A stretch of DNA of 6,600 nt from IMG/VR virus record IMGVR_UViG_2734482774_000008, one strand, 5' to 3'. Positions 1 through 6,600 of the stretch are shown here, piece by piece (position 1 is the first letter of the stretch; each line of letters starts with the position of its first letter). The position numbers were made by a program, and so were the translations under genes. The notes beneath the pieces are model-generated. The model saw only the letters and a program-made list of their open reading frames with translations. It was not told the DNA's origin and did no database searches. The DNA comes from a virus (lineage: Duplodnaviria; Heunggongvirae; Uroviricota; Caudoviricetes).

Positions 1-345
1 TTCAGGGGGCCAGTCTAGACAGAATGACGCGATACCGGCTTTCTGTGGCTCGGTCAGTGGAACTTTTATATTGCGCTCCACCCATGCCAGCGCCTTATCA
101 CGCTCAATGGCGTTGACCTGGTCGCATTTTTCCTTCGACAGTTTCATATTGGGAAAAACGTTTTTTCCATCCACCACTGTGGCACCCCGACAGATGGTCC
201 ATATGCCAGAACCATCGCGGTATGCCATTGTGTGGTTACCTTCTTTTTCGTCCAGAAACTGGTCAAGTATCTGAGGAGCAGATGCGCCAGCACCAATCAG
301 CGCCAGAACGGCAGCCGACAGGCCGTATCTGATTTTTGTGTTCAT
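1..345 (-). CDS. SAR endolysin (T4-lysozyme-family phage lysozyme, RrrD/R21-like); 5' portion only (115 codons), continues beyond window position 1
   Basis: Manual translation of the minus strand from ATG at 345..343 gives MNTKIRYGLSAAVLALIGAGASAPQILDQFLDEKEGNHTMAYRDGSGIWTICRG..., open through position 1. Hydrophobic Gly/Ala-rich N-terminus typical of a signal-anchor-release domain, followed by Glu-(8aa)-Asp-(5aa)-Thr spacing matching the T4 lysozyme catalytic triad. The start ATG overlaps the upstream stop (ATGA). Not in the ORF track because it has no stop inside the window. Confidence 0.85.
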   Translation of the reverse strand, partial: MNTKIRYGLSAAVLALIGAGASAPQILDQFLDEKEGNHTMAYRDGSGIWTICRGATVVDGKNVFPNMKLSKEKCDQVNAIERDKALAWVERNIKVPLTEPQKAGIASFCLDWPPE

Positions 346-653
346 AGATATTTATGATGAGGACGCTCGTGCTTATTGGCAGGATTTTCAATCTTAAAGG
401 AGTACTGATGCTGCAGATAAGACTCAACTTTTTCTGACAATTTTTCTGCTACTTCCAGGAAGACTTGCCGGACGCTCATTCTGGCTGCTGCCTCATAAAA
501 CTCCAGCGCAGCTCCTTCAACACGGTCCATGGCGACATCCAGGCCAAAAATTTCACCGTCAAAGCGTTCTTTGTCCTGTAAGGCTACAGTTACCGTAACT
601 TTATTCTCAAAATTACGGACTCCTTTCACAACCAGTTCATAGTCTTGAGTCAT
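342..653 (-). CDS. ydfR: YdfR-like small prophage protein (DUF1327 family as recalled), encoded between holin and endolysin
   Basis: 103-aa ORF with AGGAG Shine-Dalgarno about 9 nt upstream of the ATG. Length, position and sequence match my recollection of E. coli Qin prophage YdfR. Stop overlaps the endolysin start, implying translational coupling. Confidence 0.7.
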   Translation of the reverse strand: MTQDYELVVKGVRNFENKVTVTVALQDKERFDGEIFGLDVAMDRVEGAALEFYEAAARMSVRQVFLEVAEKLSEKVESYLQHQYSFKIENPANKHERPHHKYL

Positions 654-657
654 TGGA

Positions 658-873
658 TTACTCTCCTCTCGCAGCCTTACGCCTGTCTTCTTTAATCTTG
701 AAATAAAGATTTGTCAGATACGTCAGCATGCCAAATACCAGACTACCCAATACACCTATTGCCGCCCACTGTGAGGGCGTGACTTTATCGAGCAACTGTA
801 AAAACCAGTAGCCAGCACTGCCTGCAGAGGTGCTGTAGGCGATGCCCGTTGTTAACTTATCCATGGATTTCAT
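658..873 (-). CDS. essD: Class II holin, S21-type pinholin (EssD/EssQ-like) with dual-start motif
   Basis: Translation from ATG at 873 gives [71 protein letters not shown] (71 aa), closely matching phage 21 S and E. coli EssD as recalled. Two predicted TM segments and a charged C-terminus. GGAGGTG Shine-Dalgarno immediately upstream. The MKSM N-terminus gives two in-frame starts (Met1, Met4). The track's 99-aa ORF carries an unsupported N-terminal extension. Confidence 0.9.
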
Positions 874-963
874 AGCCTCACCTCCGCAGATAACGGATGG
901 TGTACACGGTTTGGTTCGAAGAAGGAAAGAAGTTACATTAGCGTAAGGCCCGAACATCTATTC

Positions 964-994
964 AAAAAGAAAAACGCCAGCAATTATTCTGGCG
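964..994 (-). terminator. Rho-independent terminator downstream of the AraC-family gene (minus-strand orientation)
   Basis: Perfect 6-bp stem CGCCAG/CTGGCG (975..980 and 989..994) with an 8-nt loop. On the minus strand it is followed by TTTTTCTTTTT (complement of 964..974). Sits 70 nt past the AraC stop. Confidence 0.5.
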
Positions 995-1063
995 TAGCTA
1001 AAAATATCGTATAATCTTACACTTCAAAAAATAACTTTATAAAATGCCATCACATCATATCTT

Positions 1064-1777
1064 CTAAGAAAATCTTGATAAATATTGGTGCGGAGGCACA
1101 CCAAAATATCCTCTAAAAACACTTACAAAATATGATGCATTGTCATACCCGCATATTCCCGCCACCTTGCCGACAGTATGGTTACTGTAGATCAATAATC
1201 TTTGCGCCATCATCATTCGTTCTTCAAGAATTAATTTACTAAACGATAATCCTTCGTCTTTTAATTTTCTTTTTAACAAACTCTCGCTCATATATAATCT
1301 TGAAGATATATCACAAAGTCTCCATGACGCTGAGATATCCGAGTGAATAATAGCCTTAACTTTACAACCTAAGCTATTAAGACTTCCGAACAAAAAACTT
1401 TGCACTATTTTCTCTGAAGATAAGACAGCAAGACATGCAAGTGATATTTGATTTCTAACTACATCCACGGTTTTGCTATCACAATTCAAGCATGCAACCA
1501 AGTTCTTTAACAATGAAAAATCTTCACATTCTACTATCAAGTATGACGGATAAAACCTTCTTACAGAAAAAGGTGAGAGTGTGTAGTTTTTAAAGAAATC
1601 ATTAACTGTTTTCTCCTCAACATCTACGATCATTAGATGATCTGTATTTGACGAAAAAAGATCTTTTAAATTGTATTCAATGAGGACAGCATTTCCTTTT
1701 TTAAACAAAATATCTTCTTTACCAATTCGGACACCAAACGAGTTCAACACCAAAATGATAGAATATATGTATGACAT
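1064..1777 (-). CDS. AraC/XylS-family transcriptional regulator (AppY/GadX/YdeO-like), AT-rich horizontally acquired gene
   Basis: C-terminal HTH region ...SESLLKRKLKDEGLSFSKLILEERMMMAQRLLIYSNHTVGKVAGICGYDNASYFVSVFRGYFGVPPHQY is a typical AraC-type double HTH and resembles AppY as recalled. Start placed at ATG 1777 (MSYIYS...), which has an AGGTGG Shine-Dalgarno 5 nt upstream; the track's start at 1786 is GTG. Sampled 60-nt stretches are about one-third G+C, well below flanking genes. Confidence 0.85.
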   Translation of the reverse strand: MSYIYSIILVLNSFGVRIGKEDILFKKGNAVLIEYNLKDLFSSNTDHLMIVDVEEKTVNDFFKNYTLSPFSVRRFYPSYLIVECEDFSLLKNLVACLNCDSKTVDVVRNQISLACLAVLSSEKIVQSFLFGSLNSLGCKVKAIIHSDISASWRLCDISSRLYMSESLLKRKLKDEGLSFSKLILEERMMMAQRLLIYSNHTVGKVAGICGYDNASYFVSVFRGYFGVPPHQYLSRFS

Positions 1778-1990
1778 ATTATCCACCTGATATCATTGGG
1801 GTTACACCAGGTAAGTATAGGTGGAAAATCAATATTCGCCAGTTCAACAATAAGGAAAATCTCATTGCATCACAACTATAAAACCATGTGTTTAACTCAC
1901 AAAAAACAAATCATTAAACTAATCTGTTATATTATAATAGCTGCGTGCAATAATAATATTATATGCTCTTTATATTCACTTGAAATATCT

Positions 1991-2179
1991 TCATATAAAA
2001 ACAGATTGAATAAAATCTTTTGGGGTTGGTATGTTTACCAACATTAAATTGCATCTCAATGTTTTCTTTAGCGTGAACAGGATTTTTATAAAAACTGACA
2101 CTATGAGCATCATAGCGTAGTTTTTACGATTGTAAATATCCTGCATACAGGAACTCATCACTTTCAGATGATATCGCAT
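1991..2179 (-). CDS. Hypothetical small protein (62 aa) between the RudS-like gene and the AraC-family gene; possibly not a real gene
   Basis: ORF begins 5 nt after the RudS-like stop with a weak GGTGA Shine-Dalgarno-like sequence. Contains a hydrophobic stretch (MMLIVSVFIKILFTL). Lies in AT-rich DNA where spurious ORFs are common, with no recognisable homology. Confidence 0.2.
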   Translation of the reverse strand: MRYHLKVMSSCMQDIYNRKNYAMMLIVSVFIKILFTLKKTLRCNLMLVNIPTPKDFIQSVFI

Positions 2180-2183
2180 ACAG

Positions 2184-3143
2184 TTAATTCACCATCAGTC
2201 TTAGAGCCAGTTCTTCCGGATAGGGATCGAAGTAATTCTGTGTAAGCAAGTAATCATTAGGATACTCACCCAGATAATGCTTCAGCAGAGTCAACGGCGC
2301 AAGAAGAGGCAATGTGCCAAAGCGATAGTTAAGTATAACCTCGCTCAACTCTTTACGCTGGCGTGTACTTAAGTAATTACTAAAATACCCCTGTATATGC
2401 ATCAGCACATTCGTGTGATTTTTACGTGATGCTGGTTTTCTGAGAATCGCCATCAGATTATCACGATACACCTCAAAGTATGATTCAAGGTCCGCCCACT
2501 CGTGTATTGCAGCCACAAATGGTCCCATATCTTTATAGCCTGCCTGGCTATGCGCCAACAACTGAAGCTTATAACGACTATGAAAAGCTAATAACTCTCT
2601 TCTTGATAATTTCTCCTTGTAAAGGTGATTGAGCTCATGCAAAGCAAAAACTCTTTCAATAAAATTCTCACGAAGCACTGGATCATGTAATCGCCCATCC
2701 TCTTCAACCGGTAGCCAGGAAAACTTTTCCATCAAAGTGCTCGTAAATAGTCCCACTCCATCTTTACGACCTCGATTACCATTTTCATCATAGACACGCA
2801 CGCGCTCCATGCCACAGCTGGGAGATTTAGCACAAACCACAAACCCCGATACATCCTTTAATTTGTCCATATAAGAACGACTAAACTCTGTCATTCTCTC
2901 TGTCACATCCTCATTCTGGTCGTGGCTGAAACACATCCGTATATTTCCTTGCTTCGAGCGCACAAGTCGTAGAGCAGGACGCGGAACTGGCAGCCCTATA
3001 GCCATTTCCGGACATACTGGTCTGAATGTTACCCATTCCACTAATTTGTCCATTAAAAAGTCATCTCTTTTGTGACCACCATCAAAACGAACAGCAGAAC
3101 CGCCCAAACAACCGCTGATCCCAATCACAGGTTTTTTTATCAT
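2184..3143 (-). CDS. TudS(DUF523)-DUF1722 fusion protein, RudS-like [4Fe-4S] thiouracil / tRNA 4-thiouridine desulfidase
   Basis: 319 aa. N-terminal half carries the TudS signature: Cys12 (GISGCLGG), Cys44-Pro-Glu46 (VCPE), and Ser107-Pro-Ser109-Cys110-Gly (KSPSCG), matching the three cluster-ligating Cys plus catalytic Glu/Ser as recalled. C-terminal half resembles YbgA-type DUF1722, ending ...YFDPYPEELALRLMVN. Strong GGGGGAGGAA Shine-Dalgarno before the ATG at 3143. Confidence 0.85.
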   Translation of the reverse strand: MIKKPVIGISGCLGGSAVRFDGGHKRDDFLMDKLVEWVTFRPVCPEMAIGLPVPRPALRLVRSKQGNIRMCFSHDQNEDVTERMTEFSRSYMDKLKDVSGFVVCAKSPSCGMERVRVYDENGNRGRKDGVGLFTSTLMEKFSWLPVEEDGRLHDPVLRENFIERVFALHELNHLYKEKLSRRELLAFHSRYKLQLLAHSQAGYKDMGPFVAAIHEWADLESYFEVYRDNLMAILRKPASRKNHTNVLMHIQGYFSNYLSTRQRKELSEVILNYRFGTLPLLAPLTLLKHYLGEYPNDYLLTQNYFDPYPEELALRLMVN

Positions 3144-3335
3144 TTCCTCCCCCTTGACTAATTCATTAACACATAAACTTTGTAGTGCACGGACTAAATT
3201 GCCTTTCTGGCTTCATCACTGACAATTTTTCTGTTATTGACTATTCCTAATATAGTAGGAAAGTTCTTTAAGTGATCGGTCGTACTCATCTATCTTTCAT
3301 ACTTACTCTCAACTATCAAAAGTACAGGATTTATT
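3144..3335. promoter_or_regulatory. Divergent intergenic region expected to hold the promoters of the RudS-like gene (minus) and the blc-like gene (plus)
   Basis: 192-bp non-coding spacer between divergent start codons. Contains TTGACT hexamers (3155..3160 and 3236..3241) and a TATAGT hexamer (3251..3256), but I could not pair them into a promoter with canonical spacing. Confidence 0.35.
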
Positions 3336-3860
3336 ATGAAGTTATGGCCTGTGTTGACTGGCATTGCACTCTCTTTCACTCTTATAGCATGTAAGGCCCC
3401 GACACCACCTAAAGGTGTGCAGCCGATTACAAATTTTGACGCCAACCGCTACCTCGGAAAATGGTATGAAATAGCTCGCCTCGAGAACTGGTTCGAACGT
3501 GGTCTGGAACAGGTCAGCGCTACTTATGAAAAACGGAACGACGGAGGGATTCGCGTACTTAACCGTGGATACGATCCAACGAAAAACAAATGGAGCGAGA
3601 GCGAAGGTAAAGCATACTTTACTGGAGATACTAAAACTGCAGCGTTGAAAGTTTCGTTTTTTGGCCCCTTCTATGGTGGCTATAATGTAATCAAACTGGA
3701 TGATGAGTATAAGTATGCTCTTGTCAGTGGTCCGAACAGAGAATACCTATGGATTCTGGCAAGGACCCAAACTATTCCAGATAATGTAAAAGCAGACTAT
3801 GTGCGTACCGCTCAAAAGTTGGGATTCAATGTCAATGAACTATTATGGGTTAAACAATAA
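3336..3860 (+). CDS. blc: Outer-membrane lipoprotein lipocalin, Blc paralogue
   Basis: 174 aa. Signal peptide with lipobox LIAC (Cys19) and Lys at +2. Lipocalin SCR1 motif NFDANRYLGKWYEIAR and the block KAYFTGDTKTAALKVSFFGPFYGGYNVI closely resemble E. coli Blc as recalled (about 60 percent identity estimated by eye, so a paralogue). AGGA Shine-Dalgarno 6 nt upstream. Confidence 0.9.
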   Translation: MKLWPVLTGIALSFTLIACKAPTPPKGVQPITNFDANRYLGKWYEIARLENWFERGLEQVSATYEKRNDGGIRVLNRGYDPTKNKWSESEGKAYFTGDTKTAALKVSFFGPFYGGYNVIKLDDEYKYALVSGPNREYLWILARTQTIPDNVKADYVRTAQKLGFNVNELLWVKQ

Positions 3861-3888
3861 AATCCCCACCCGAAATGATACTTATTAG

Positions 3889-3915
3889 AAAAAAACCAGC
3901 CTTTGGGGAGGCTGG
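3889..3915 (-). terminator. Rho-independent terminator in minus-strand orientation, about 100 nt downstream of the Q gene (tR'-like position)
   Basis: Perfect 7-bp stem CCAGCCT/AGGCTGG (3896..3902 and 3909..3915) with a 6-nt loop. On the minus strand it is followed by seven T (complement of A-run 3889..3895). On the plus strand there is no T-run after the hairpin, so it is at best a weak terminator for blc. Confidence 0.55.
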
Positions 3916-4015
3916 CTAAATCAGGAAACAAGCTGTTATATGATAATAACTACGTTGCGATTCCAACATTTAAAATGTTAGACTAATGAAAATCAGACAG
4001 CAACTTTTCCTTTAA

Positions 4016-4393
4016 TTATTTCGAACAATCAGCATCCATCTCCAATCGGAGATCCAACACCATCAGCATGCCCTCCACTACGCCCTCAGCTTTCTGGAGC
4101 ATCCTGCCAACCCAACAATCAGATCGCCCATGCTTATGTGCAAGCGCCATAAAAGTCATGCCGCCGACATAATAGTCCACCAATAAATCATGTAAATCGC
4201 TGTTGTTTTTTTTCAGGCGAGCCATACATTCACAAATGATCATCGCGTCATCGTCACAGCATTGCGGACGAGATCTTACTTTTGAAGGAATTAATCCCTT
4301 AAAACCGGCGGCAATGGACGACCAGGTCACATCTTCATGATTATTAGCCGCCCATGCCCCCCAACGCTCAAGAACCATCTGAATATCACGCAT
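4016..4393 (-). CDS. Late-gene antitermination protein Q (phage 82 Q / QuuD-like)
   Basis: Translation from ATG 4393 gives [34 protein letters not shown]...[34 protein letters not shown]... (125 aa), matching Q82-family antiterminators such as E. coli QuuD as recalled. GGAG Shine-Dalgarno 7 nt upstream. The track's start at 4408 is a TTG-initiated extension. Confidence 0.85.
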
Positions 4394-4410
4394 CAACTTA
4401 CTCCACAAAA

Positions 4411-5028
4411 TTAGGCCAGCACACCAATTGCCAGCGCGCGATCGATAAATCGAAAAATCAGCTCCAGTTGGGAGCCATACTTCTCTTCAAATGCCACGGT
4501 ATCCGTATGCAACTCGTCGTGATGCTTTCTGCACAAAGGCAAAACAAAGAGATCATGTGCTTTGGTTCCCATTCCGCCCTGCCCGTGACCAATCAGATGA
4601 TGCGGATCGTCGGCTGGCATACCGCAGCAAGCACACGGCTGTGTCTTAACCCAGCGTGTGTATTTCTCCTTAACCCACCGGTGACGTTTAGGCAGCTTCA
4701 TGAAAGATTCCGGAGACTCTGGATCAACGGTGATGCTTACCACCGTCTTTTCCTGTGATGGGTTTTGTTGCTGGTGGGCGTGAGGCAACGGTGCAAGATT
4801 TTTTGTGCGCTGTTTCAATATGCTGGTGGCGGTCTGCTCTCCCGGTACGATGTCGCTTTCGCGGTACACCGAGCAGATTTTTTCCGCTGGTAATCCCAGC
4901 GAGCGACGTAATACCGCTTCCGGTAGCGCGTCCGCCAGCTGATTGCGGACCGCCCACCAGGATAATTCAGCCAGAGATAATTCACGCTCCTGCGTACCGC
5001 TTATTGCGTGACCGATGACGTCAATCAT
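4411..5028 (-). CDS. YdfU-like prophage protein with Cys/His-rich C-terminal domain (DUF968 as recalled); N-terminus possibly truncated or replaced
   Basis: 205-aa ORF immediately upstream of Q on the same strand. C-terminal block [49 protein letters not shown] has a CxxC...HH...C..HH metal-binding pattern. No convincing Shine-Dalgarno before the ATG at 5028, which lies 2 bp from the divergent xis-like start. Confidence 0.65.
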
Positions 5029-5030
5029 CC

Positions 5031-5285
5031 ATGCTGACAGGTTTTGATGAGCAAGTTGCTCGAGTGATTCGGATATCCGAAGAGCAGTTAATTGCGCTGA
5101 AAGGAATAAAAAAAGGTACGTTAAAAAAGGCCCGGGAAAAATCGTTTATGGAAGGAAGGGAATATAAGCATGTCGCTCATGACGGTATGCCATGGGATAA
5201 CAGTCCATGCTTTTACAACCTGGAAGAAATTGATCGCTGGATTGAGCGCCAGGCATCAGCAAGACCAAGACGTCATCTTACTTGA
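5031..5285 (+). CDS. Excisionase-like small DNA-binding protein (Xis-like), upstream of and co-oriented with the integrase
   Basis: 84-aa ORF ending 34 nt before the integrase start. Contains EGREYKHVAHDG, resembling the DGREYLFHESA wing region of lambda Xis as recalled, at a similar distance from the N-terminus. No clear Shine-Dalgarno, so the exact start is uncertain. Confidence 0.55.
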   Translation: MLTGFDEQVARVIRISEEQLIALKGIKKGTLKKAREKSFMEGREYKHVAHDGMPWDNSPCFYNLEEIDRWIERQASARPRRHLT

Positions 5286-5319
5286 CTAAAAGCCACACTA
5301 ACTAATGAGAGAAGTTGAA

Positions 5320-6600
5320 ATGAAATATCCGACAGGCGTGGAAAACCATGGAGGGAAATTACGTATCTGGTTTGTTTATAAAGGCGTAAGAGTCAGGGAA
5401 AATCTGGGGGTTCCTGACACAGCAAAAAACAGGCGCGTTGCAGGTGAACTACGCTCCTCTGTTTGTTACGCAATAAAAACTGGTGTTTTCGACTATGCAA
5501 AACAGTTTCCCTCCTCACGCAATCTGGAAAAATTTGGTGAGGCCCGACAAGATTTAACCATAAAAGAACTGGCTGAAAAATTTCTGGCACTGAAAGAAAC
5601 TGAAGTCGCCAAAACATCACTCAACACATACCGTGCCGTCATCAAAAATATCCTGAGCATAATCGGTGAAAAAAATCTTGCCTCATCGATTAATAAAGAA
5701 AAATTACTGGAGGTTCGTAAAGAGCTACTGACTGGATACCAGATCCCCAAAAGTAACTATATTGTTACACAACCAGGGAGATCGGCTGTAACTGTAAATA
5801 ATTACATGACAAATCTTAACGCCGTGTTCCAGTTTGGTGTTGATAACGGTTACCTGGCAGATAACCCGTTTAAGGGGATCTCGCCATTAAAGGAATCAAG
5901 AACCATTCCGGATCCTCTTTCGCGGGAGGAATTCATCCGTCTTATCGATGCGTGCAGAAATCAGCAAGCCAAAAATTTATGGTGTGTTTCTGTTTATACT
6001 GGCGTTCGCCCTGGTGAGCTGTGTGCACTTGGATGGGAGGACATAGATCTGAAAAATGGAACAATGATGATCAGGAGAAATTTAGCAAAAGACCGTTTCA
6101 CGGTCCCAAAAACACAGGCGGGAACCAATCGGGTCATTCATCTTATTAAGCCAGCAATCGACGCTCTCCGGAGTCAGATGACATTAACGAGACTGAGCAA
6201 AGAGCATATCATTGATGTTCACCTCAGAGAGTATGGCAGAACAGAAAAACATAAATGCACCTTTGTTTTTCAACCTGAAGTGTCAGCGAGAGTAAAAAAT
6301 TATGGTGACCATTTTACCGTTGACTCAATAAGGCAGATGTGGGACGCAGCGATAAAACGTGCCGGACTCCGCCATCGAAAATCATATCAGTCGAGACATA
6401 CTTATGCCTGCTGGTCGCTGACAGCTGGTGCTAACCCGGCATTTATAGCAAACCAGATGGGCCATGCAGATGCGCAAATGGTATTTCAGGTATACGGAAA
6501 ATGGATGTCTGAAAACAATAATGCACAGGTAGCTTTGTTAAATACACAGTTAAGCGAGTTTGCCCCAACCATGCCCCATAACGAAGCAATGAAAAATTAA
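5320..6600 (+). CDS. int: Phage tyrosine integrase (Rac IntR-like, with N-terminal arm-binding-type domain)
   Basis: Translation from ATG 5320 (GAGAGA purine-rich stretch upstream) gives MKYPTGVENHGGKLRIWFVYKGVRVRENLG..., resembling the IntR-type N-terminal domain as recalled. C-terminal catalytic signatures present: TGVRPGEL (Arg), SRHTYACWSL (Arg-His), GHADAQMVFQVYGKW (His and catalytic Tyr). Stop codon is the last three bases of the window. Confidence 0.9.
   Translation: MKYPTGVENHGGKLRIWFVYKGVRVRENLGVPDTAKNRRVAGELRSSVCYAIKTGVFDYAKQFPSSRNLEKFGEARQDLTIKELAEKFLALKETEVAKTSLNTYRAVIKNILSIIGEKNLASSINKEKLLEVRKELLTGYQIPKSNYIVTQPGRSAVTVNNYMTNLNAVFQFGVDNGYLADNPFKGISPLKESRTIPDPLSREEFIRLIDACRNQQAKNLWCVSVYTGVRPGELCALGWEDIDLKNGTMMIRRNLAKDRFTVPKTQAGTNRVIHLIKPAIDALRSQMTLTRLSKEHIIDVHLREYGRTEKHKCTFVFQPEVSARVKNYGDHFTVDSIRQMWDAAIKRAGLRHRKSYQSRHTYACWSLTAGANPAFIANQMGHADAQMVFQVYGKWMSENNNAQVALLNTQLSEFAPTMPHNEAMKN

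Follow-up and report, generated by a model that had tools for sequence, protein, structure and literature searches.

The open reading frame studied here is a real, intact gene for a Blc-type outer-membrane lipocalin, carried as accessory cargo by lambda-like E. coli phages. The window, i.e. the whole stretch of 6,600 nucleotides that was analysed, represents what a deletion has left of a lambdoid prophage at the Qin site of E. coli (Table 1). Under the best explanation, the lipocalin would be a functional, Lol-sorted outer-membrane protein carried as a moron in a three-gene cassette—lipocalin on the plus strand, RudS and an AraC-like regulator on the minus strand. In lambda-like coliphages and in remnants of such phages, this cassette would separate the unit of Q, late promoter and terminator from the lysis genes. 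The lipocalin would have been captured together with rudS, would bind the same class of ligands as Blc and would lie antisense to late transcription as a by-product. To this reading as a whole, we assign a probability of roughly 0.6.

The basic finding is already known and is ordinary, of low to moderate interest: the gene has been annotated as ‘lipocalin family protein’ or ‘Lipocalin Blc’, and blc is already in the literature as one of the most common morons in lambda-like phages of the infant gut (PMC6969025). Three points are added here. Rather than being a copy of E. coli blc, the phage gene is a member of a second clade of enterobacterial lipocalins; it moves together with rudS, whose product has been characterised by experiment as a tRNA 4-thiouridine desulfidase; and the two genes have their counterpart in a MerR-regulated locus on the chromosomes of Enterobacter-like bacteria. 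Should the two act jointly, a prophage cassette would provide a stress function to about one in five sequenced E. coli, and there would be a testable setting for the physiological role of Blc-type lipocalins, which has long been unsettled.

Table 1. Features of the window and the evidence for them.
Feature	Position	Strand	Evidence or remark
Class II (P21-type) holin gene, first late lysis gene past the cassette	658..957	-	PF04971, E 6.1e-34
Gene for AraC-family regulator (YdeO/GadX-like), low G+C, third gene of the cassette	1064..1786	-	Pfam, NCBIfam
rudS (TudS/DUF523 + DUF1722), tRNA 4-thiouridine desulfidase	2184..3143	-	Pfam; divergent from lipocalin, co-oriented with late transcription
Divergent intergenic region, rudS/lipocalin	3144..3335		Conserved across five alleles
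Clade-B Blc-type outer-membrane lipocalin gene	3336..3860	+	174 aa, ATG start
Lipoprotein signal peptide, lipobox L-I-A-C (Cys19), Lys at +2	3336..3392	+	Read from the translation
Intrinsic terminator, tR'-like, 24 nt past the lipocalin stop codon	3884..3917	-	For minus-strand transcripts
Candidate late promoter, pR'-like	3975..4003	-	TTGCTG, 17-nt spacer, TAACAT; directly downstream of Q
Q antiterminator gene, distant Q21-family member	4016..4393 (or 4408)	-	PF06530, E 1.6e-50
Deletion junction, 4-bp overlap	5071..5074		5'-truncated ydfU (DUF968) joined to 5'-truncated xis

A Blc-type lipocalin of a second enterobacterial clade

The protein, which is identical to RefSeq WP_000780584.1 of strain REL606, matches Lipocalin_2 (PF08212) over the full profile with E = 7.5e-43 and 146.4 bits (cutoff 24); a second Pfam match is to PF00061 (E = 2.2e-5). 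It also passes the NCBIfam model ‘outer membrane lipoprotein Blc’ (NF007786) with 312.6 bits (cutoff 267) and matches the E. coli Blc structures 3mbt and 1qwd at E about 1e-66, its identity to the solved Blc structures being 59-62%. As the earlier note on this DNA had read from the letters, lipobox and lipocalin motif are both intact: the signal peptide reads MKLWPVLTGIALSFTLIA|C, giving the lipobox LIAC|K, and the G-x-W-Y motif appears as GKWYEIAR. Full-length profile matches above curated cutoffs together with a type II signal peptide and a non-Asp residue at +2 thus place the protein in the Blc subfamily. In pairwise alignment, the phage lipobox lines up with VVAC|SS of Blc. It is well established that lipoproteins with a residue other than Asp at +2 are sorted to the outer membrane, and the Lys at this position predicts this destination for the phage lipocalin.

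The likeness to E. coli Blc (P0A901-type; PDB 1QWD, 2ACO and 3MBT; sigma-S-dependent, encoded in ampC-blc-sugE) comprises the Lipocalin_2 fold family, the passed NF007786 model, equal length, a gapless alignment and a lipobox with non-Asp at +2. Yet the phage protein shares 58.6% identity with K-12 Blc (63% at the DNA level), confirming that it is clearly diverged from the chromosomal version, and it falls in another enterobacterial clade. Instead of the frdD-(ampC)-blc-sugE context of E. coli blc (clade A), the phage gene occupies a cargo slot between Q and the lysis genes, beside rudS. Its upstream region is unrelated to that of blc, so that sigma-S control of the phage copy cannot be assumed.

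The earlier designation of the gene as a paralogue of E. coli blc therefore has to be given up. The closest relatives of the phage lipocalin, at 76-80% identity, are found in Cedecea, Scandinavium, Enterobacter and others, not in E. coli, and in a neighbour-joining tree the phage alleles nest with 97% bootstrap inside a second, separate clade of enterobacterial lipocalins (clade B) that is natively absent from E. coli. Buttiauxella izardii has one lipocalin gene of each clade. Chromosomal clade-B lipocalins of Enterobacter, Leclercia, Buttiauxella, Huaxiibacter, Raoultella, Cedecea and Scandinavium are 77-80% identical to the phage protein and share with it the mature N-terminus KxPTPPKGVQP and the divergent orientation to a RudS gene. 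In the databases, these chromosomal proteins carry the names Blc or lipocalin family protein.

That the prophage provides an extra copy, as had been proposed, is borne out by the genome counts. Chromosomal ampC-blc-sugE was found in 5,425 of 5,426 complete E. coli genomes, and REL606 holds both chromosomal blc and the phage-type gene. The phage gene, used as a blastn query at ‘distant’ sensitivity, did not retrieve chromosomal blc, to which it is only 63% identical in DNA; the count was made with a Citrobacter-type plasmid blc as a bridging query. A displacement of the host's own blc into the prophage, leaving no additional copy—the outcome that the earlier note had named as speaking against its own proposal—has family resemblance as the one point in its favour. 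It is refuted by the near-universal chromosomal blc and by the two genes of REL606; with the 58.6% identity and the placement in the other clade, it is next to impossible.

A cargo cassette between Q and the lysis genes

The fixed order of Q, lipocalin (plus strand), RudS (minus), AraC-like gene (minus) and holin was found in about 1,100 of the 5,426 complete E. coli genomes. All 80 viral IMG/VR contigs are consistent with it: 59 show the full order, the remainder agree given contig ends or IS elements, and the AraC-like gene always lies between rudS and holin where the contig permits. The order recurs in the isolated phages 1H12 and IdasGreatGrand and in other prophage backbones. Because 80 of 80 viral contigs fit one order, the arrangement looks like the result of a single capture. 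The phage-type lipocalin itself is present in 1,146 of the 5,426 genomes (about 21%), 1,038 of which cover at least 80% of an 811-bp query spanning the lipocalin, and the Q allele with its downstream region occurs in a similar number (1,115 genomes).

The cassette is absent from phages with related Q. The lipocalin gene is intact in REL606, where rudS is split by IS3, and in strain 503829, where the AraC-like gene is disrupted. Lying between Q/tR' and holin among backbone modules, dispensable for the backbone and patchily distributed among relatives, the gene has the location and distribution of a moron. Indeed, it is the same gene as the ‘blc’ moron of lambda-like coliphages (Mathieu et al. 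2020, PMC6969025), represented by 1H12 gp65 (‘Lipocalin Blc’), with 96-97% protein identity and the shared order Q - blc - YbgA/RudS - regulator - holin. While that moron resides in a viable phage, the copy in the window lies in the Qin-site remnant, which has suffered a deletion and is not inducible. Going by the literature, PsrA, PsrB and PatE are conceivable orthologues of the AraC-like protein; in the O157:H7 genome Xuzhou21, a single lipocalin locus was found, which means that these regulators are not linked to this lipocalin there. RefSeq annotates homologues of the holin as a 71-aa EssD, which would start at 873.

The remnant state is evident from alignment: window positions 18-5074 correspond to 15001-20057 of the sequence L001 and positions 5071-6600 to 28519-30048, so that 8.46 kb is missing at the junction, and with it the early genes and those for immunity and replication. 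Without this region, the remnant is unable to drive its Q gene from an early promoter. Read-through of the terminator would here occur only in trans, via the Q of a co-resident phage.

The late unit is of the Q21 type, with Q, a terminator on the same strand, the holin gene downstream and a candidate promoter. Q matches the Q21 structures 6p18/6jnx at E = 4.5e-9 and is convergent with the lipocalin gene, as had been noted before. So had the minus-strand terminator just past the lipocalin 3' end, and the coordinates in the note were accurate. It is canonical, running from 3917 to 3884 with a 9-bp stem (3917-3894) followed by seven T (-14.9 kcal/mol, z = -3.5), and is invariant across six alleles; read on the plus strand, the hairpin has no U tract. 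A search of Rfam at a permissive threshold returned two sub-threshold chance matches only, one of them this hairpin.

By analogy with lambdoid architecture, the hexamers directly downstream of Q may represent pR'. A transcript started at this candidate would have a leader of some 75-80 nt that ends at the terminator. Among the alleles, its -35 element is invariant and its -10 element is either TAACAT or TAATGT; the site is absent from a consensus promoter scan at its threshold. In phages with an 84%-identical Q, megablast homology starts at window position 4034, inside Q, and the segment downstream is not shared, so that the candidate is not anchored to a characterised late promoter. On the other side of the lipocalin, the intergenic region shared with rudS yielded no strong sigma-70 site in the consensus scan. 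The best -10-like hexamer is TATAGT (3251-3256), within the inverted repeat TTCCTA-N6-TAGGAA (3244-3261), and marks a putative promoter from which the lipocalin would presumably be expressed in the lysogen.

The probable chromosomal source locus and the antisense arrangement

The RudS of the window is 91.9% identical in amino acids to gp66 of phage 1H12 (RudS_vir), with Cys12, Cys44 and Cys110 kept, and RudS_vir has been shown experimentally to lower the s4U content of tRNA (PMC11417400). Phage RudS is 70-72% identical to the RudS encoded beside clade-B lipocalins in Enterobacter, Buttiauxella and relatives, where the two genes have the same relative orientation. Ten chromosomal species loci (L012-L021) and one metagenome contig (L008) have the order RudS, often a transthyretin-like gene, and a MerR/MlrA-like gene, divergent from the lipocalin; in one of them, L020, the MerR match is absent. 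In Cedecea and Scandinavium, the lipocalin is found instead beside a SnoaL / SDR / amine-oxidase / DUF1365 / CFA-synthase / DUF2878 cluster.

Since lipocalin and rudS sit together in the native clade-B locus, they were probably captured together, once, from an Enterobacter-, Leclercia- or Buttiauxella-like chromosome. At the source, a clade-B lipocalin would have been divergent from a MerR/MlrA-like gene followed by rudS, and the regulator gene would have been lost at capture. The apparent co-capture could also represent two separate events into one site, given that the phage lipocalin reaches only 80% identity to its best chromosomal match and that synonymous sites show saturation.

The phage cassette differs from the chromosomal clade-B loci in that neither the MerR/MlrA-like nor the transthyretin-like gene is present between lipocalin and rudS and the intergenic control region conserved in the chromosomes is missing; instead, an AraC-like gene forms part of the cassette. 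By tblastn, no remnants of MerR, the transthyretin-like gene or other cluster members were found in the window below E = 0.3. The chromosomal MerR-lipocalin intergenic regions contain the conserved blocks TCAATATACTACGAAT and TGCACTACACTT, but the rudS-lipocalin intergenic DNA of the phage has no homology to them, and blastn homology between the window and the chromosomal locus is confined to coding regions. A retained MerR operator was also considered; the forced alignment matches 11/16 positions in an AT-rich stretch and was taken as chance.

The earlier note had further proposed that late transcription running antisense through the lipocalin is a built-in switch that silences the gene during lytic growth. 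The geometry is real and conserved. The lysis genes lie 3 kb further along the minus strand from the terminator, and we infer that in intact relatives the Q-modified late transcript must cross the lipocalin antisense to reach the holin gene. Transcription that reads through the terminator in this way would cover the lipocalin in antisense and both rudS and the AraC-like gene in sense. The notion of a switch is weak, however, because the ancestral lipocalin/RudS pair was already divergent, meaning that one of the two genes would be antisense whichever way the pair inserted. In the Morganella phage IME1369_01, an independently acquired lipocalin points in the direction of the late genes. The antisense crossing is thus probably a by-product of an inherited divergent gene pair rather than a designed switch, and nothing here marks the arrangement as more than a consequence of the pair's insertion.

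Possible functions of the phage lipocalin

Comparison of the heme-contact residues listed for Blc in PMC8177097 revealed that 18 of 19 are identical in the phage lipocalin, the sole change being K77R. Blc binds heme or another tetrapyrrole, and its own physiological ligand is unsettled (PMC8177097). Because its pocket hardly differs from that of E. coli Blc, the phage protein most likely binds hydrophobic ligands of the Blc class—lysophospholipids, fatty acids and possibly tetrapyrroles—and would do so on the side of the outer membrane that faces the periplasm. Lysogens would in this way gain, perhaps to their benefit, a second Blc-type lipocalin of a clade that E. coli does not otherwise have. 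Both cassette genes are under purifying selection in phages, with dN/dS values of 0.06-0.23 among lipocalin alleles (allele pairs with dS up to 0.2) and of 0.11-0.28 for rudS.

A more specific possibility, conceivable though on balance unlikely, is that lipocalin and RudS form a phage-carried module protecting against near-UV and photo-oxidative stress. RudS would remove the s4U chromophore from tRNA, the lipocalin would sequester photo-oxidised lipids, lysolipids or tetrapyrrole photosensitisers, and E. coli, natively without either gene, would gain tolerance by lysogeny. The shared MerR/MlrA-like locus of both genes and the Cedecea/Scandinavium cluster described above are in line with such a module, as are the purifying selection on both genes and the tetrapyrrole binding of Blc. 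Moreover, rudS genes are frequent in light-responsive operons, the rudS of E. cloacae adjoins a MerR regulator gene, this type of MerR/rudS locus has been called light/UVA-responsive, and E. coli is without RudS (PMC11417400). Yet neither the MerR regulator nor its control region came along, so that any response to light would have been lost or rewired, and REL606, with its split rudS and intact lipocalin, argues against strict co-dependence. The link to function comes from gene neighbourhood, and a literature search combining lipocalin, photolyase, cyclopropane and MerR, or using the RefSeq accession, gave no results. The further-reaching version, in which the phages carry a two-gene piece of an enterobacterial light/UVA-stress locus, lysogeny confers near-UV tolerance and induction turns rudS on and the lipocalin off, we consider improbable.

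Alternatively, the lipocalin might be a selectively neutral passenger that hitch-hikes with rudS or the AraC-like gene and benefits neither phage nor host. The cassette does behave as one linked unit, and PHROG 2809, the group of the lipocalin, is listed as ‘unknown function’. The low dN/dS of the lipocalin alleles, the conserved pocket and the 1,038 of 1,146 genomes with at least 80% query coverage all speak against neutrality, and the gene has stayed intact where either of its neighbours is broken; a mere passenger seems quite improbable.

This leaves the function favoured in the earlier note, i.e. superinfection exclusion or envelope protection in the manner of Cor, Llp and Bor, with the antisense placement as an evolved silencing switch for lytic growth. 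The protein is a predicted outer-membrane lipoprotein of a temperate phage, most morons of these lambda-like phages encode membrane proteins (PMC6969025), and convergent Q, terminator and distant lysis genes form the geometry that such a switch would use. However, Pfam finds lipocalin families only, PADLOC returned no defence-system match, and neither these searches nor PHROG 2809 place the protein in a known exclusion or defence family such as Cor or Llp. The 18 identical pocket residues point to retained Blc biochemistry, i.e. small-molecule binding, rather than to a new receptor-blocking role. As for the switch, the divergent arrangement of the ancestral pair accounts for the orientation, and since the phage arrangement looks like a single capture, convergent evidence of design is absent; the lipocalin of IME1369_01 is co-oriented with the late genes, and the window is without the early region needed for Q expression. 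An exclusion function under an evolved switch is therefore very doubtful, and cargo of the Blc type remains our preferred reading. The analogy with Cor and Llp (superinfection exclusion) and Bor/Iss (serum resistance) holds insofar as all are phage-encoded lipoproteins expressed in lysogens, the lipocalin presumably so, but these proteins have no sequence or family relation to the phage lipocalin and none of them is known to be a lipocalin. Related phages have a separate Bor/Iss gene elsewhere.

The prophage lipocalin and its relatives

The intact lipocalin ORF matches Pfam Lipocalin_2 over its full length (E 7.5e-43), clears the curated NCBI model 'outer membrane lipoprotein Blc' (312.6 bits, cutoff 267) and, among solved structures, hits those of E. 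coli Blc (3MBT, 1QWD and 2ACO) with E values near 1e-66. An earlier note, made from the sequence alone, had located and described the lipocalin, Q and terminator correctly, as the ORF, profile matches and hairpin show. Lipobox and lipocalin motif are indeed intact, the translation containing G-x-W-Y and a lipoprotein-type signal peptide that ends in L-I-A-C with Lys at +2, and the divergence from K-12 Blc is clear (58.6% protein and 63% DNA identity, aligned without gaps). The note's observation is confirmed and its interpretation partly supported: the lipocalin is borne by a phage, additional to chromosomal blc and encoded antisense to late transcription. The gene itself was already known, being annotated in RefSeq ('lipocalin family protein') and in phage records ('Lipocalin Blc') and listed as a lambda-phage moron by Mathieu et al. 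(PMC6969025). The literature searched contained neither the clade assignment nor the MerR/RudS-locus synteny nor the pocket conservation described here, which sharpen the hypothesis for a gene that remains of an already-known kind.

The window derives from E. coli, at the Qin prophage site with ydfJ and rspB on either side. Apart from an 8.46-kb deletion, the UTME-7 prophage (L001) is collinear with it: window 18-5074 aligns with L001 15001-20057 and 5071-6600 with 28519-30048, overlapping by 4 bp. Lost relative to UTME-7 are the N-terminal part of ydfU, the replication and YdaT genes, both repressor-type regulator genes, ydfA, ydfB, exonuclease fragments, an IS3 element and the first 37 bp of xis. 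The window copy is therefore a remnant, its truncated ydfU running directly into a truncated xis and int; the early/immunity region is absent by alignment to L001, and the 84-aa 'xis' ORF (5031-5285) starts in foreign sequence.

That this is an extra copy, and not a displaced chromosomal gene, holds up: using a Citrobacter-type plasmid blc as bridging query, the chromosomal ampC-blc-sugE gene turned up in 5,425 of the 5,426 complete E. coli genomes, and E. coli B REL606 carries both a chromosomal blc (4,355,897-4,356,433) and a prophage lipocalin (1,617,068-1,617,592) whose protein is identical to that of the window. Origin by divergence from E. coli blc, in contrast, is contradicted by the phylogeny. 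The nearest relatives, at 76-80% identity, are lipocalins of Cedecea, Scandinavium, Pantoea, Klebsiella and Enterobacter, and in a neighbour-joining tree of the mature region three phage alleles nest within clade B, the second enterobacterial lipocalin clade, with 97% bootstrap. The two clades were separated by classifying the flanks of 30 enterobacterial loci. Clade A occupies the frdD-(ampC)-blc-sugE site in Salmonella, Citrobacter, Atlantibacter, Buttiauxella and others (56-61% identity to the phage protein), and Buttiauxella izardii carries one gene of each clade. Distant blastn found no core clade-B gene in E. coli, the matches being prophage copies and the CMY-2 plasmid blc only.

Clade B has two contexts. 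At ten chromosomal loci (L012-L021; six Enterobacter species, Leclercia, Buttiauxella, Huaxiibacter and Raoultella; 73-80% identity to the phage protein) and on a metagenome contig (L008), the lipocalin is divergent from a MerR/MlrA-like gene, beyond which lie a transthyretin-like gene (not at every locus) and a gene for a 319-aa RudS/YbgA; one of the ten, L020, gave no MerR match. In Cedecea and Scandinavium, the lipocalin adjoins a SnoaL / SDR / amine-oxidase / DUF1365 / CFA-synthase / DUF2878 cluster, which may resemble an alpha-proteobacterial one implicated in furan/modified fatty-acid synthesis and singlet-oxygen stress. At three such loci (L007, L009, L010), the cluster is flanked by the lipocalin and a MerR-like regulator gene. 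Two blocks, TCAATATACTACGAAT and TGCACTACACTT, are strongly conserved across genera in the DNA separating the lipocalin from the MerR/MlrA-like gene (L012-L021, L007, L009); they are likely promoter and operator elements of a chromosomal clade-B regulon.

A cassette with RudS and an AraC-like gene

On the minus strand, Q, a candidate promoter and a terminator are followed by the lipocalin gene (opposite strand), the RudS-type and AraC-family genes, the holin gene and DUF1327/ydfR.

Features of the cassette region and the deletion junction, in window coordinates
Feature	Position	Strand	Details
P21-type holin gene	from 957 or 873 down to 658	minus	
Terminator-like hairpin after AraC-like gene	974-995	minus	strong: 7-bp stem plus T run
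AraC-family regulator gene	1064-1786	minus	low G+C (about 33%)
Terminator-like hairpin after rudS	2098-2118	minus	weaker
TudS/DUF523 + DUF1722 protein	2184-3143	minus	319 aa
Lipocalin gene	3336-3860	plus	174 aa; ATG start
Intrinsic terminator	3917-3884	minus	9-bp G+C-rich stem at 3917-3894, then seven T
Candidate late promoter	4003-3975	minus	TTGCTG, 17 nt, TAACAT
Q gene	4016-4393	minus	PF06530, E 1.6e-50
Deletion junction	5071-5074		4-bp overlap; joins 5'-truncated ydfU (DUF968) to 5'-truncated xis

The same order and orientation are found in isolated temperate phages (Jouyvirus 1H12, the Lambda_ev series, IdasGreatGrand) and in prophages on other backbones. Among 80 IMG/VR viral contigs with the cassette, 59 have the full order, and contig ends or IS insertions could account for the rest. 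The lipocalin segment occurs in 1,146 of the 5,426 complete E. coli genomes and the Q 3' end with its downstream segment in 1,115, so that the two are tightly linked; in cassette-free phages with an 84%-identical Q, homology stops inside the Q 3' end. A 2.1-kb contig binned as 'Candidatus Nanosynbacter' (L011, JARKOR010000135.1) carries a rudS fragment, the lipocalin and a Q fragment at 97% identity and is almost certainly a binning contaminant.

The predicted product of the gene beside the lipocalin is a RudS-type tRNA 4-thiouridine desulfidase. With gp66 of phage 1H12 it shares 91.9% identity, Cys12/44/110 being kept; gp66 is the 'RudS_vir' whose overexpression lowered tRNA 4-thiouridine (Jamontas et al. 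2024, PMC11417400). The same study reports that TudS/RudS homologues are missing from E. coli, that light-responsive operons often contain RudS genes, and that in E. cloacae a MerR regulator gene adjoins rudS (PMC11417400). About a fifth of E. coli genomes would thus owe RudS only to the prophage cassette.

The phage RudS-like protein shares 70-72% identity with the RudS encoded beside clade-B lipocalins, and its gene is divergent relative to the lipocalin, as in the chromosomal loci. DNA homology to those loci is confined to the two coding regions: the window holds no remnants of the MerR or transthyretin-like genes, and the phage rudS-lipocalin intergenic region is unrelated to the chromosomal control region. 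The simplest history would be a single capture of the lipocalin/RudS pair with loss of the intervening regulator gene. The AraC-like gene, its G+C content far below that of neighbouring genes, would have joined separately. Its best NCBIfam matches are YdeO, HilD and GadX, each under its cutoff, and it belongs to the general class of PsrA, PsrB and PatE, prophage regulators governing acid resistance in O157:H7. Between the lysis genes and terminase of Morganella phage IME1369_01 (L094, 5001-5516) lies an independently acquired Blc-type lipocalin, indicating that lipocalin capture is recurrent among temperate phages.

Probable function and antisense placement of the lipocalin

The lipocalin is under purifying selection and is no obvious passenger: dN/dS among phage alleles is 0.06-0.23 (dS up to 0.2), at least 80% of an 811-bp query spanning the gene is covered in 1,038 of the 1,146 genomes, and the gene survives in damaged remnants, being intact in REL606 (L091 4063-6283) beside a rudS split by an IS3 element and in strain 503829 beside a disrupted AraC-like gene. 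In the co-crystal structure of Blc (PMC8177097), 19 residues approach heme to within 4 Å; 18 of these are unchanged in the phage protein and generally across clade B, and the remaining one is K77R. As mature-region identity to Blc is 62%, divergence lies on the surface and not in the pocket. The phage protein thus most likely binds Blc-class ligands, i.e. lysophospholipids or fatty acids and possibly a tetrapyrrole, suggesting a Blc-type lipid/tetrapyrrole-binding role at the periplasmic face of the outer membrane, presumably under different regulation from sigma-S-dependent chromosomal blc. Nothing supports the superinfection-exclusion role proposed in the earlier note: Pfam finds only lipocalin families in the protein, PADLOC matches no cassette protein, PHROG 2809 is labelled 'unknown function', and conservation of the pocket suggests that small-molecule binding has been kept. 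Related phages carry a separate Bor/Iss lipoprotein gene.

The note had also proposed that late transcription silences the lipocalin. The geometry stands: the gene converges with Q, a distant Q21-family member (PDB 6P18, E 4.5e-9), and the terminator lies between them. In the uninduced state, this terminator would halt a short leader 24 nt short of the lipocalin gene; in intact relatives, Q-modified polymerase would have to traverse the gene antisense before reaching the holin gene, also yielding sense transcripts of rudS and the AraC-like gene. An evolved switch, however, is doubtful, and the placement is probably incidental. The ancestral lipocalin/RudS pair was already divergent, so one gene would be antisense in either insertion orientation, and all copies look descended from one insertion, leaving the design without independent replication. 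The 50%-identical lipocalin of IME1369_01 is oriented with its lysis and terminase genes. Moreover, lacking the early region, the window has a Q without early promoter, and read-through here would depend on a second resident phage whose Q has matching specificity.

Terminators and candidate operators

The minus-strand terminator is canonical (-14.9 kcal/mol, z = -3.5) and unchanged across the six alleles compared; on the plus strand the same hairpin precedes CUAAAUCAGG and lacks a U tract. Given the further hairpins after rudS and the AraC-like gene, polymerase would have to read through several such sites with the aid of Q before late transcription reached the holin gene. A 9-bp hairpin or palindrome, UCUAACAUU-UUA-AAUGUUGGA (3955-3985, minus strand), overlaps the -10 of the candidate late promoter, and in the 1H12 and RM14516 alleles most pairs survive substitutions via G-U wobble; it may belong to the Q-loading/pause region or serve as a DNA operator. 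A perfect inverted repeat, TTCCTA-N6-TAGGAA (3244-3261), lies some 80 nt ahead of the lipocalin start codon and overlaps the best -10-like hexamer, TATAGT (3251-3256). Kept in three of five alleles, with G to T in one arm in the other two, this repeat may be an operator.
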